A stretch of 38,725 nt of DNA from a virus. Its lineage: Duplodnaviria; Heunggongvirae; Uroviricota; Caudoviricetes. Every line of letters starts with the position of its first letter. Positions within the stretch are counted from its first letter, which is position 1. The position numbers are program-made. The stretch lies in the IMG/VR virus record IMGVR_UViG_646311924_000013, one strand, 5' to 3'. This document shows, piece by piece, positions 1 to 15,000 of this stretch.

Positions 1-3000
1 ATGCCACTGCTGGATAAGCTGCGTGAGCAGTACGGGGTCGGACCGGTATGCAGCGAACTGCATATTGCCCCGTCAACGTATTACCATTGTCAGCAACAGC
101 GACATCATCCGGATAAACGCAGTGCCCGTGCGCAGCACGACGACTGGCTGAAGAGAGAGATACAGCGCGTATACGATGAAAATCATCAGGTGTACGGTGT
201 GCGTAAAGTCTGGCGTCAGTTGTTACGGGAAGGAATCAGGGTGGCCAGATGTACAGTGGCACGTCTCATGGCGGTTATGGGACTTGCCGGTGTTCTCCGG
301 GGTAAAAAGGTCCGTACGACCATCAGCCGGAAAGCCGTTGCCGCAGGCGACCGCGTAAACCGTCAGTTCGTGGCAGAACGACCTGACCAGCTGTGGGTGG
401 CTGATTTTACTTACGTCAGCACATGGCAGGGCTTCGTCTATGTGGCGTTTATCATTGATGTGTTTGCCGGATACATCGTGGGGTGGCGGGTCTCATCGTC
501 TATGGAAACGACATTCGTGCTGGATGCGCTGGAGCAGGCGTTGTGGGCCCGTCGTCCGTCTGGCACCATCCATCACAGCGATAAAGGCTCTCAGTATGTG
601 TCACTGGCCTATACGGAGCGACTAAAAGAAGCCGGATTACTGGCATCAACAGGGAGTACAGGCGACTCGTATGACAACGCGATGGCTGAGAGCATCAATG
701 GTCTTTACAAAGCGGAGGTAATACACCGTAAGAGCTGGAAAAACCGTGCAGAAGTGGAACTGGCCACACTAACGTGGGTGGACTGGTATAACAATCGACG
801 ATTGCTGGGAAGGCTGGGCCATACTCCTCCGGCAGAAGCAGAAAAAGCTTATTATGCTTCCATCGGAAACGATGATCTGGCAGCCTGAGTTCACAGATAA
901 AACACTCTCCAGGAAACCCGGGGCGGTTCACAGGCAGGTGAAAGTGAACCAGTGTCACCGGTACCGAAAGTGACAGCGCAAATGCTGACTGAGGCGATTG
1001 AACAACATGGCCCACAAACGGCGGATGAGCTGGCACTGATGTTCGGGATTACCTCCCGCCGGGCGAATTCATCGCTGGCCATGGCAATCAGCAAAGGGCG
1101 TCTGATTCGCGTGAATCAGGGCGGTAAATTTCGTTACTGCATACCGGGCGCTGATTTACCGGCAGAGCCGGAAGCTGCATCCGTAGCGGAAACCGATGGT
1201 AAAGCCTTTCCTCAGCCAGCAGGTGTTGCGTTACCAGTCCAGGAAACGACGACACAGGAAGAAATGAAAACAGAAATCGTGGAAGACATTGTGAAGTTAC
1301 AGCCATCGGTCACCGAAACGAAAGCAGATGACCTGATTCTACCATCGCTGCATGTGGCTAACCGCGAGCTGCGCCGGGTAAAAGGTCAGGTTCAGAAGTG
1401 GGAGCGAGTCTGCGCCGCGCTGCGGGAGCTGAACAAGTGCCGGGATATTCTCCGGGATATTACCGCCACCAGAGAACAGCAGCGGTGAGTGGGTGGAAGA
1501 CGTGGTGCCGGGCTGAAATTCTGATACTCCGGCAGTGCGCGGGAACAATGAAGGTAAAAAGCATTGGCGCGCTTATCGGACGAACTGAAGCGGCAGTGAG
1601 AACGAAGGCACGGGAGCTGGGCATCAGCATGATGTTACGTGGTGATTTTCACCCGTCGGCAAAATATTCACAGCGTGATATTGAGCTGGCGCGGCAACTG
1701 CATCAGCGCGGTGTACCCCGACGGGAAATTGCCGAAAAGTTCGGAATGAAGTTGCGTGCAGTGAATAACTACGTTTATTTCGACAGGAGGGTTCAGGCGT
1801 GAGGGTGAGAATTTATATCGCCGGTCCAATGACGGGATATGAAAATTTCAACCGCGAGGCATTTCACAGGGCGGAAGAAGCACTGAAACGGGAAGGGCAT
1901 ACCGTCTTAAACCCGGCAGTACTTCCGGACGGGCTGACACAGCCGCACTACATGGATATTTGCATGGCAATGATTCGTTGTGTGGATGCGGTTTATATGC
2001 TGAATGGCTGGCAGCGGTCAGCGGGCGCTAAGGCAGAGCTGGCACTGGCGGAGAAACTGGGGCATGCGGTGATTTATCAGGAGGTGGCTCAATGAGAGAG
2101 GTTAACTATGAGGCGCTTCGTGAGGCAGCACAAAACTATCAGTCGACGCTGGCGTGGTATCAGGCTATCCCGGACAGCCCAAATGCTGAACGGGATTGTG
2201 ATGCGGCTCTTGCTGCGTTTAAGCGTCACATCCGTCATCGGGAAGCGGATATTATCGCTGATTTGCTGGATGGACTGGAAGAAGCAAAATCACAACTCAA
2301 CGAGCAACGTGAGTATTACGAAGGTGTTATCTCGGATGGGAGTAAGCGCATTGCTGAACTGGAAGCGCGGGAAGTTCAATTACCGACTCGCTACGACCTT
2401 CGATATGGACACCCGATAAATGCAGATGAGCGACAAGTCATGATACCTAAAGAAAATGGCAGTTGGCTTTACCTGATTGACCTAGAACACGCATTACGCG
2501 TCGCTGGCATTCGCATCAAAGGAGAGGAGCATGGAAATAAAACCAGAAGATGAGTTAAGTAATATTGTTTTATTTCCGGTAAAAGAGGATGACCCACGTA
2601 ATCAGGTTAATTTTCTTTATGAGCCATCGGAAAGACCATACTGCCATCACGCCTCTGTCCGGGTTGACGAAAAAGAGCGTCAGGTCCGCTGTAAAATCTG
2701 CGGTTCAGTTGTGGAGCCGTTTGACTGGATGCTCTCTGTGGCGAAAAGAGAAACCAGACTGGCAGATGATGTAAAGCTATTGCGCCAGGAGGAACAGGAA
2801 AGGCGAAAAAATATAGAAAAGTTAATTCAGATTGAGCGTAACGCGAAAGCGCGGATACGCAGGGCGTCAAAATCCAGAACTGAATAATTAAATTCAGCAC
2901 TGTTAAAAATTTAATCCTTAACCGGAGGGATTCCTGCACCCTCAGAACATAAGGAGACCGCCTGAAAGGGTGGTAATGAAAAATGACTGAATTAACCAAA

Positions 3001-12000: not shown

Positions 12001-15000
12001 ACCAGATGGAAAAAATCACAACAGGTGTGTCATACACCACGTCAGCGGTGGGAACGGGCTACTGGTTCCTGCAGTTGCTGGACAGGGTTTCCCCGTCTCA
12101 GTGGGCGGCAATAGGCGTGCTGGGGAGTCTGCTGTTTGGTCTGCTGACGTACCTGACGAACCTGTATTTCAAAATCAGAGAGGACAGGCGTAAGGCGGCA
12201 CGGGGAGAGTAGGTGATGAACCATGAAGAAATGAATCAGCGCTTCAGTCGTCTGGAAAATGAAATTGCTGAACTGAATAAAAAACTGTCGGCGCTGATGC
12301 CTTCTGAAGATGAAAAAAAACGCCGCGATGAGCAGTTTGCTGCGTTTGACGATTATTGTCGGAAAGTGATGAGCAGAAATCTCGCAGAGTGTTTCAGTAT
12401 TCATAATGATAATTGCAGTGAGCTGGAATGGGTGAACCGCCCCGGAAATCCTGGAGACTAAACTCCCTGAGAAAGAGGTAAACAGGATGACTAAAAATAC
12501 TCGTTTTTCCCCCGAAGTCCGTCAGCGGGCGATTCGTATGGTTCTGGAAAGTCAGGATGAATATGACTCACAGTGGGCGGCAATTTGTTCCATTGCCCCA
12601 AAGATTGGCTGTACGCCGGAGACTCTGCGTGTCTGGGTTCGCCAGCATGAGCGGGATACCGGGGGCGGTGATGGTGGGCTCACCAGCGCTGAACGTCAGC
12701 GTCTGAAAGAGCTGGAACGTGAAAATCGTGAACTGCGCCGCAGTAACGATATCCTTCGCCAGGCTTCCGCTTATTTTGCGAAGGCGGAGTTCGACCGCCT
12801 CTGGAAAAAATGATGCCACTGCTGGATAAGCTGCGTGAGCAGTACGGGGTCGGACCGGTATGCAGCGAACTGCATATTGCCCCGTCAACGTATTACCATT
12901 GTCAGCAACAGCGACATCATCCGGATAAACGCAGTGCCCGTGCGCAGCACGACGACTGGCTGAAGAGAGAGATACAGCGCGTATACGATGAAAATCATCA
13001 GGTGTACGGTGTGCGTAAAGTCTGGCGTCAGTTGTTACGGGAAGGAATCAGGGTGGCCAGATGTACAGTGGCACGTCTCATGGCGGTTATGGGACTTGCC
13101 GGTGTTCTCCGGGGTAAAAAGGTCCGTACGACCATCAGCCGGAAAGCCGTTGCCGCAGGCGACCGCGTAAACCGTCAGTTCGTGGCAGAACGACCTGACC
13201 AGCTGTGGGTGGCTGATTTTACTTACGTCAGCACATGGCAGGGCTTCGTCTATGTGGCGTTTATCATTGATGTGTTTGCCGGATACATCGTGGGGTGGCG
13301 GGTCTCATCGTCTATGGAAACGACATTCGTGCTGGATGCGCTGGAGCAGGCGTTGTGGGCCCGTCGTCCGTCTGGCACCATCCATCACAGCGATAAAGGC
13401 TCTCAGTATGTGTCACTGGCCTATACGGAGCGACTAAAAGAAGCCGGATTACTGGCATCAACAGGGAGTACAGGCGACTCGTATGACAACGCGATGGCTG
13501 AGAGCATCAATGGTCTTTACAAAGCGGAGGTAATACACCGTAAGAGCTGGAAAAACCGTGCAGAAGTGGAACTGGCCACACTAACGTGGGTGGACTGGTA
13601 TAACAATCGACGATTGCTGGGAAGGCTGGGCCATACTCCTCCGGCAGAAGCAGAAAAAGCTTATTATGCTTCCATCGGAAACGATGATCTGGCAGCCTGA
13701 GTTCACAGATAAAACACTCTCCAGGAAACCCGGGGCGGTTCAGGGAGTGTAACCGGCCATCCTTTGTTGTATCCGGTGATGACGGGAAAATCACCATATC
13801 AGAAAATGGAAAAGTAACACTGCCATCGCACCAGCACAGTGAGACGCTCATTGAATTTGCCATTGATTACCTGAAGAACAATAAAAAACAGGGGCTGATG
13901 CAGCGCATTGGTCGTTGCATGGGGTATCTGCAGGTAGCCGCTGAGATTGAAGCGCTGGCCAGTGGTGCTGATAAGGATGCAATTGTGCGGGAGGCTCTTC
14001 TTCGTAATTTTAATACTCCACCCTTTAAAAAAGTGCCGGCTTACTGGCTTCATCCCGGACTGACTTATCTGAAAGTGCGTATTTAGTGGGCCTGGGACAG
14101 CGGCTGAATATTTAATATATCCATGAACGCAAAAATCAGATACGGCCTGTCGGCTGCCGTTCTGGCGCTGATTGGTGCAGGGGCGTCTGCGCCTGAAATC
14201 CTCGACCAGTTTCTGGATGAAAAGGAAGGTAACCACACCACGGCATACCGTGATGGTGCGGGTATCTGGACCATCTGCCGTGGAGCCACCCGGGTGGATG
14301 GTAAGCCTGTTATTCCTGGCATGAAGCTGTCGAAGGGGAAATGCGACCGGGTTAACGCCATTGAGCGTGATAAGGCGCTGGCATGGGTGGAGAAAAACAT
14401 CAAAGTGCCACTGACTGAACCCCAGAAAGCGGGGATCGCGTCATTCTGCCCGTATAACATTGGCCCCGGTAAGTGTTTCCCGTCGACGTTTTATAAACGA
14501 ATTAATGCAGGCGATCGCAGGGGAGCGTGTGAAGCGATTCGCTGGTGGATTAAGGACGGAGGCAGAGACTGCCGTATCCGCTCAAATAATTGCTATGGTC
14601 AGGTATCCCGTCGTGACCAGGAGAGCGCGCTGGCGTGCTGGGGTATCGACAGATAAGCAGAATATTTTGCTGAAAAATGACGTTGGCCAACGCGGACGGA
14701 TAACACGAAATCCTGCGAACTGGCAAAACCTGAGTGAATAAAAGTAAAAACCCCGTTTGTTAGCAGCAGGTGGGGTTTTGTGTTTCCTGACTCCGGAAAA
14801 GTCAAAGGAGAAAGTGTGTTTGATTTTAGCAAACTGATTCGGGAGATTCGAGTGATGGCTGAAAAATTATCCACCTGGAAGTTCATTCTTATCTGGCTGG
14901 TGTTTGTGATTATGGCCTCCGGTTATTTCATCGGTCAGATACGCTGGTGGTGAAATGAACCGCGTACTGTGCGTGGTCATCATTGCCCTGCTGGTGGCCT

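Follow-up and report, generated by a model that had tools for sequence, protein, structure and literature searches.

We examined a 38,725-nucleotide stretch of DNA (hereafter, the window; IMG/VR record IMGVR_UViG_646311924_000013, Caudoviricetes) that contains two copies of the insertion sequence (IS) IS629/IS1203. The window represents a defective lambdoid prophage, integrated at ompW, of the O111 (H8/H-/NM) lineage of enterohaemorrhagic Escherichia coli (EHEC). About 20 complete O111 (H8/H-/NM) chromosomes of E. coli match it with 100% identity over 13.5 kb. The two IS copies are in direct orientation and bracket 11,502 bp, in agreement with the initial annotation, which had described 11.5 kb of ‘prophage cargo’ between direct IS629 copies and had proposed that this block could be lost or moved as a unit. 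Our survey covered 5,426 complete E. coli genomes. As the base-by-base reference for the left end that lies outside the window, we used O111:H- strain 110512, which shows 5 differences in 23.2 kb when compared with the window. The features at the two IS sites are as follows.

1-930, plus strand: left IS629/IS1203, 3′ 930 bp (IS nucleotides 381-1310), with most of orfB (1-888) and part of the ALIL pseudoknot (1-72)
931-1488, plus strand: 5′-truncated DUF1627 gene (Pfam DUF1627, 3.4e-81; PGAP pseudogene ‘missing N-terminus’; readable open reading frame (ORF) 952-1488)
931-12432, plus strand: bracketed block, 11,502 bp; native nin / Q / late-regulatory / lysis segment of the ompW-integrated lambdoid prophage
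12216-12432, plus strand: N-terminal part of a split 185-aa phage ORF (phrog_1085, unknown function; PHROG match 2.9e-111; intact in strains 8E and UTAK-8)
12430-12432: GGG, left copy of the target-site duplication of the right IS
12433-13742, plus strand: complete right IS629/IS1203, 1310 bp
12487-12813, plus strand: orfA (Pfam HTH_Tnp_1)
12768-12884: ALIL frameshift pseudoknot (Rfam, 121.5 bits)
12805: slippery A6 run, the orfA/orfB -1 frameshift signal
12810-13700, plus strand: orfB (Pfam rve / HTH_21)
13743-13745: GGG, right copy of the target-site duplication of the right IS
13745-14086, plus strand: C-terminal part of the split 185-aa ORF (PGAP pseudogene ‘missing N-terminus’; intact in 8E)

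The two IS629 copies and their flanks

Self-comparison of the window returned a single long direct repeat. Positions 1-930 match positions 12813-13742 with 0 mismatches, and identity breaks off exactly at 931 and 13743. The window thus begins with the 3′ end of an IS629 whose complete 1310-bp counterpart occupies 12433-13742, as initially annotated. The right element has 25-bp imperfect terminal inverted repeats (22/25 matching) with 5'-TG...CA-3' ends; it starts TGAACCGCCCCGG... and finishes ...CCGGGGCGGTTCA. Every property of IS629/IS1203 that could be checked was found, including the length, the inverted repeats, two frameshift-joined ORFs, near-identity and a 3-4 bp duplication at the simple insertion. 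RefSeq names identical copies ‘IS3-like element IS1203 family transposase’, and IS1203 is an isoform of IS629 (PMC3271280). IS copies with 100% identity occur in many O111 genomes, and the O111 genomes listed each have at least 35-40 places that match IS629.

The right copy splits a 185-aa phage ORF that has no Pfam match and whose PHROG matches are all of unknown function. Its flanks read ...GGAATGGG / IS / GGGAGTG, and the sequence beyond it continues GGGAGTGTAACC... In strain 8E, the right site is empty: a single GGG is present and the 185-aa ORF is intact. Strain UTAK-8 similarly keeps the ORF intact and lacks the right IS while retaining the left one. The 3-bp GGG duplication, the single-GGG empty site in 8E and the existence of about 10 strains with the left copy only thus identify the right copy as a simple, fairly recent insertion. 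This event would have been a plain copy-out-paste-in insertion between the holin and lysozyme genes, with sister strains keeping the empty site.

The flanks of the left copy differ in kind. Its right inverted repeat ends ...GGCGGTTCA at window position 930, and the Rfam ALIL match in this copy is cut at its 5′ end by the window edge. Strain 110512 has the left copy at its full length of 1310 bp (L001, 7922-9231), and position 1 of the window falls on IS nucleotide 381. Extending upstream, the check proposed in the initial annotation, therefore places position 1 within a full-length IS. We infer a full left copy in seven further listed matches from a record span of 14,580 bases (13,501 + 1,079). 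The flanks in 110512 read ...CTCGTTAC / IS / CAGGCAGGTG..., with no target-site duplication (TAC / CAG).

To the left of this copy is sequence with homology to a serine-recombinase element, which in other E. coli is located between yciI and tonB; there, the yciI-side element natively continues ...CTCGTTACAG(A/G)GCG. On the other side, native DUF1627 sequence resumes exactly at 931 (CAGGCAGG...). Intact DUF1627 homologues read ...TTCAGGCTGGTGAAAG, and also ...TTCAGGCTGGTG... and ...GATTCAGGCTGGTGAAAG..., over the breakpoint. The bases TTAC belong natively to the left element and CAGG to DUF1627, and both are kept in the IS-bearing allele. Since one flank is a serine-recombinase element and the other is the interior of DUF1627, the left IS sits at a junction of two unrelated elements. 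A copy at such a junction, lacking a duplication, would mark an IS-associated rearrangement breakpoint; the junction is read directly, and the mechanism is one that we infer.

The surroundings of ompW point to a rearrangement of larger scale. The genes tonB-yciA-yciB-yciC-ompW are present in 5,422 of the 5,426 genomes. In O111:NM strain 08-4377 (L019, NZ_CP077596.1 2768732-2799344), tonB-yciABC-ompW lies ~140 kb from the locus, with a lambdoid int-xis-exo-cI-cro-O-P arm carrying an intact DUF1627 gene on one side and ttcA on the other. An IS629 copy beside ttcA has no target duplication, and its flanks (AGG / ACA) are unrelated. Simple deletion of the whole interval from yciI to DUF1627 was rejected, as 08-4377 retains tonB-yciABC-ompW at this distance together with the int-to-P arm. 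Because the prophage left arm and tonB-ompW lie ~140 kb away, we interpret the left IS junction as one breakpoint of a larger rearrangement that split the arms of the ompW prophage, rather than as a local nibble. The rearrangement would have detached the int-to-P arm, which now accompanies tonB-ompW.

These observations modify the proposal that the left IS removed the N-terminus of the ORF at 952. The IS does lie exactly at the truncated 5′ end and has no duplication, which fits an IS-associated rearrangement. Simple removal does not fit, given that IS-free sister strains share the truncation and that the left arm and tonB-ompW now lie elsewhere.

Origin and fate of the bracketed block

Genes and RNA features were assigned across the block and, beyond the right IS, at the adjoining lysozyme gene, where the prophage is unbroken.

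3910-4209, minus strand: parE (Pfam ParE_toxin, 5.8e-10)
4215-4472, minus strand: parD (Pfam ParD_antitoxin, 1.5e-7)
5950-6324, plus strand: rusA (Pfam RusA, 1.5e-16)
6321-7142, plus strand: antiterminator Q (Pfam Antiterm, 5.3e-52)
7717-8775, plus strand: N6/N4 DNA methyltransferase (Pfam N6_N4_Mtase, 7.7e-44)
8822-8881, plus strand: degenerate tRNA (Rfam tRNA, 37.3 bits, a gathering-score match)
8967-9159, plus strand: STnc100 small RNA (Rfam, 144.5 bits)
9161-9222, minus strand: AgvB anti-GcvB small RNA (Rfam, 96.5 bits)
9370-11316, plus strand: nanS-p-type sialate O-acetylesterase homologue (Pfam DUF1737 + SASA + DUF6645)
11997-12212, plus strand: P21-type class II holin (Pfam Phage_holin_2_1, 9e-33)
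14123-14656, plus strand: phage lysozyme R (Pfam Phage_lysozyme, 3e-24)

The gene order DUF1627-...-DUF551-ParE/ParD-DUF968-RusA-(Q)-methylase-tRNA-esterase-holin recurs in swine strain UTME-9, whose lambdoid prophage is uninterrupted and has the series after cI/cro and the replication genes. Downstream, the block in the window passes directly into lysozyme, Rz, terminase, head and tail genes, and the prophage right end is an ompW 3′ fragment adjoining yciE. Because the block is colinear with the UTME-9 prophage and continuous with the downstream phage genes, the IS pair did not bring in the block DNA.

We identified the block, counted as present at ≥80% coverage, in 46 of the 5,426 genomes. 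The 40 that are listed are O111 or unserotyped strains in which it occupies similar chromosomal positions; every listed genome examined has it beside yciI, and plasmid copies number 0. Loss of the block was assessed with a synthetic query that fused 1.5-kb segments of the left and right flanks and would give a one-piece match for any block-deleted genome, with or without one IS remaining. Left and right flanks lie within 2 kb of each other in 0/5,426 complete E. coli genomes. A comparison of the parDE and flank genome lists, made by hand across the 46 genomes, found parDE in 46/46 genomes with flanks, at one place in most listed O111 genomes and at two places in four. Both IS copies are present in direct orientation in at least 23/46 genomes, and probably in 26 if three unlisted genomes resemble 02-3334 as presumed. 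The predicted IS x IS deletion was found in none of these at least 23 (probably 26) genomes.

These results bear on the possibility that the IS pair, together with the block, makes up a functional composite transposon or a deletion-prone unit whose parts are moved or lost together. Two intact-looking copies in direct orientation, 11.5 kb apart and identical over their last 930 bp, are what such a unit would have, and both copies possess intact orfA and orfB with the frameshift signal. Direct repeats of 1.3 kb are also a textbook RecA substrate. The initial description of the repeats as a recombination substrate is thus true in principle, but no deletion or movement of the unit was seen in the 46 related genomes, where the block was never deleted between the copies and never found elsewhere. 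This is the outcome that the initial annotation had named as refuting its proposal, here in a small and closely related sample. No duplication surrounds the pair, which is bordered on the outside by ...GTTAC and GGGAG... (TAC ... GGG); a GGG duplication belongs to the right copy itself, and the left copy has none. A second location or replicon is likewise absent from the 46 block-carrying genomes, and about 10 left-only and 4 right-only strains indicate that the pair was assembled in situ. A composite transposon was rejected on the duplication pattern, the single location and the colinearity, and the broader notion of a unit that is moved or lost together is very unlikely. With separate IS histories, no shared duplication and native phage order, the block does not qualify as the cargo of a transposon; we favor separate arrival of the two copies around resident prophage DNA.

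The genes initially listed for the block, encoding ParDE, RusA, Q, the methyltransferase, NanS-p and the holin, were all recovered. The exception is the ‘tRNA-like element’ at 8822, which PGAP calls tRNA-Met and for which the Rfam match is weak. A true tRNA at 8822-8891 was rejected, as ARAGORN finds none. The STnc100 and AgvB genes lie between the degenerate tRNA and the nanS-p-like esterase, an interval that we take to be the slot holding stx in Stx phages. This stx-less prophage remnant still encodes AgvB, a regulatory small RNA that targets a core small RNA. We also observed that parDE is 100% identical in the intact lambdoid prophage of swine strains UTME-9, -10, -12 and -14.

IS-associated variants and the polarity of the left site

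We found 19 genomes that carry both IS copies and an intact block, about 10 genomes (UTAK-8 included) that carry the left copy only and 4 strains that carry the right copy only. All four left/right presence-absence combinations were found, and repeated loss or recombination is therefore required. At the left site, E2855 and three other strains lack the IS and have the junction CTCG/CAGGTG, from which the IS and the native TTAC and CAGG have been removed. The same junction is found in the diverged 8B/95NR1/95JB1 lineage (95JB1 was assigned by its flank match). This E2855-type scar removes the IS and 4 bp of each flank, with 1 nt of microhomology (L002, ~16001; L006/L007, ~15496). Strain 8E instead reads CTCGTTAC-AGTTCA-CAGGCAGG, a scar of 6 nt whose last bases are the IS terminus GTTCA.

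Other strains have larger alterations. In strain 7-32 9A, the left IS is inverted and 312 bp of the left flank are missing. The left IS of 08-4377 is cut after nucleotide 770 and fused to CAGGCAGG via CAG microhomology, and an additional 1,265 bp of left flank are gone. Strains 02-3334 and 2013C-4081 have lost window positions 931-2840 (1.9 kb) from the exact right end of the left IS, with the junction read in 02-3334. TW05614 has lost ~9 kb, from lysozyme to tail genes, starting at the exact right end of the right IS. The right site of 2015C-3101 (L005, 18813-21266) contains a partial IS629 (~1.1 kb) followed by a second complete copy, in a tandem or nested arrangement.

Two further observations concern these variants. 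The right IS of TW05614 (L015, 16734-18043) has five differences clustered at IS nucleotides 596-644, abutting the ~9-kb deletion; this patch suggests exchange with a third IS629 copy. In addition, every rearrangement catalogued at the locus spares parDE.

The DUF1627 truncation is present in every strain, IS-free strains included, and the IS-free left states are thus best read as secondary losses rather than empty sites. The E2855-type junction is without both TTAC and CAGG. Because both are absent from it, it cannot be the ancestor of the IS allele and must descend from an allele that had TTAC and CAGG. The E2855-type allele was accordingly rejected as an ancestral empty site, as it lacks the native bases on both sides.

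A different polarity would apply if the DUF1627 junction were older than the IS, with an IS-free allele of the E2855 or 8E type being ancestral and IS629 inserting there later. In keeping with this order of events, IS-free alleles with the same truncation occur in several strains, including the diverged 8B/95NR1/95JB1 lineage, and the leading AG of the 8E scar corresponds to native left-element bases. A later insertion would, however, be expected to leave a 3-4 bp duplication, and none is present. It would also have to restore the TTAC and CAGG that the E2855 type lacks, and chance regain of these 8 bases has a probability of ~1.5e-5. The 8E allele, for its part, already holds the IS terminus GTTCA. 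Finally, the E2855 group has the right IS, as do 19 window-type genomes that bear the left IS, and it is nested inside them if the right insertion was single. We therefore consider insertion into an older junction very unlikely, and loss of the left IS from an IS-bearing allele remains our interpretation.

The E2855 group has the right insertion, differs from the window by 1 SNP (single-nucleotide polymorphism) across the block and is without the flank SNPs of the 8B type. The sequences suggest that this group probably lost the left IS independently of the 8B lineage, despite the identical scar. A doubtful extension is that the left copy was excised at least twice independently with an identical scar; cleavage would then follow a defined geometry, ~4 bp beyond each IS end, rather than a free microhomology search. 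If this were true, the ~4-bp cleavage geometry would also give ‘precise’ excision wherever a duplication is present. A weaker companion idea is that parDE, lying inside the bracket, may counter-select IS x IS deletion.

The window differs from 8E, 8B and 95NR1 by 62-100 SNPs that are clustered in a few patches (5103-5312, 7366-7616 and 11706-11857), with the rest identical. Such clustering is what gene conversion between paralogous lambdoid prophages typically leaves, in contrast to clonal divergence.

Transposase, IEE and related systems

The IS-excision enhancer (IEE) acts together with transposase to promote precise IS excision and adjacent deletions of a few bp to >40 kb, has microhomology end-joining activity and occurs in O111:H8 (PMC9943667; bioRxiv 10.1101/2023.06.07.543989). 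We located iee in strain Sakai as ECs_1305, and O111 strains 2015C-3108 and 08-4347 (at least 2 of the 46 genomes) carry a full-length iee that differs from the Sakai gene by one mismatch. The RefSeq label for IEE is ‘TOTE conflict system archaeo-eukaryotic primase domain-containing protein’ (L020, 3954-6314, and its matches), which files the protein under defence or conflict.

The variants at this locus show the pattern of IEE-type products, namely losses of near-IS length that are precise at duplications or joined at short microhomology, together with deletions from one end. The IS losses would thus represent near-IS-length excision, precise where a duplication supplies microhomology and leaving small scars elsewhere. 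The IS copies would also drive one-sided adjacent deletions, local inversion and IS truncation. Endpoint positions, taken with the literature, point to the involvement of IEE and transposase.

The same variants could in principle have arisen by RecA-dependent or illegitimate recombination and replication slippage, with the IS copies as passive landmarks and no contribution from transposase or IEE. The clustered SNP patches imply frequent homologous exchange among paralogous prophages, and the 5-SNP patch in the right IS of TW05614 (nucleotides 596-644) suggests exchange with another IS copy; the evidence for IEE, moreover, is comparative throughout. Against passive landmarks, every rearrangement endpoint lies at or within a few bp of an IS629 terminus, a signature of transposase-initiated events. 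The deletions in 02-3334 and TW05614 begin at the exact right IS end, and the scars lie within 4-6 bp of the ends. The iee gene is also present, and published IEE phenotypes match (PMC9943667). On balance, a purely passive role for the IS copies appears unlikely.

Taken together, these findings favor, with a probability of roughly 85%, a history in which the two IS copies arrived by separate events. The block would be native and in its original order, the left copy would mark a breakpoint, the right copy would be a simple insertion and the variants would reflect IEE-type IS629 dynamics.

Several points weigh against this history. An identical E2855-type junction in two diverged lineages, formed at 1 nt of microhomology, is hard to attribute to random end-joining, and a recombination patch of under about 2.5 kb could have carried the junction between lineages. 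The 8E scar starts with AG, the native left-element continuation, which makes its descent from the present IS allele uncertain. The link between the variants and IEE or transposase is drawn from comparison, and scars of this kind could also come from RecA-independent illegitimate recombination. A search for the reciprocal junctions of the large rearrangement did not recover them, and the 30 kb surrounding tonB in 08-4377 do not contain the right-hand part of the yciI-side element. The sample of closely related genomes, at least 23 (probably 26), is small for concluding that IS x IS deletion never occurs. Lastly, right-IS-free sites may be either ancestral or precise excisions.

The elements themselves are ordinary members of the IS3 family (IS150 group). 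They resemble IS629/IS1203 of EHEC prophages in length, repeats, frameshift, pseudoknot, 3-bp duplication, lambdoid prophage location and high copy number. They differ in nothing essential, the left copy lacking a duplication as it stands at a rearrangement breakpoint. Units bounded by two copies of one IS, such as Tn10, Tn5 and those formed by IS26 or ISApl1 (Tn6330), likewise enclose passenger genes; here, in contrast, a common duplication and a second location are both absent, the arrival times differ, and the enclosed DNA is native and colinear with its surroundings. For copy-out-paste-in IS3 elements in direct orientation, transposition of the whole unit would need both outer ends to be used together.

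IEE-promoted excision of IS629 (Kusumoto et al. 2011, as summarised in PMC9943667 and bioRxiv 10.1101/2023.06.07.543989) is a close counterpart. It shares with this locus a clean empty site at a duplication, losses with small scars, one-sided deletions of 0.3-9 kb and the presence of iee. Recurrence of one exact scar (the IS and 4 bp of each side, with 1 nt of microhomology) was not found described in PMC9943667 or bioRxiv 10.1101/2023.06.07.543989. The IS629-driven small-size structural polymorphisms of O157 (Ooka et al. 2009), as outlined where they are cited within PMC3271280, similarly involve strain-to-strain presence or absence of the IS and adjacent deletions concentrated in prophages. 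The serotype differs, being O111 here, and the phenomenon is the same. In O157, 62% of IS629 copies reside in prophages (PMC3271280).

The overall picture is routine prophage decay and textbook IS629-driven micro-evolution, already known in kind and well documented in EHEC prophages. Recurrence of one exact scar at a duplication-less copy and the sparing of parDE by every rearrangement are mildly unusual, and we regard both as low-probability leads. The direct IS pair does not warrant annotation as a transposon, nor should it be handled as a mobile virulence or toxin-antitoxin cassette. The locus provides a natural series of IS629 states that is useful for O111 strain typing, and it could be a test bed for the excision of an IS without a duplication.

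Two further features lie near the right end of the prophage. A frameshifted IS1 remnant occupies 36712-37411, and a gene for a type III effector kinase of the OspG family (NleH-like) occupies 37587-38177; both are identical to strain 110512.

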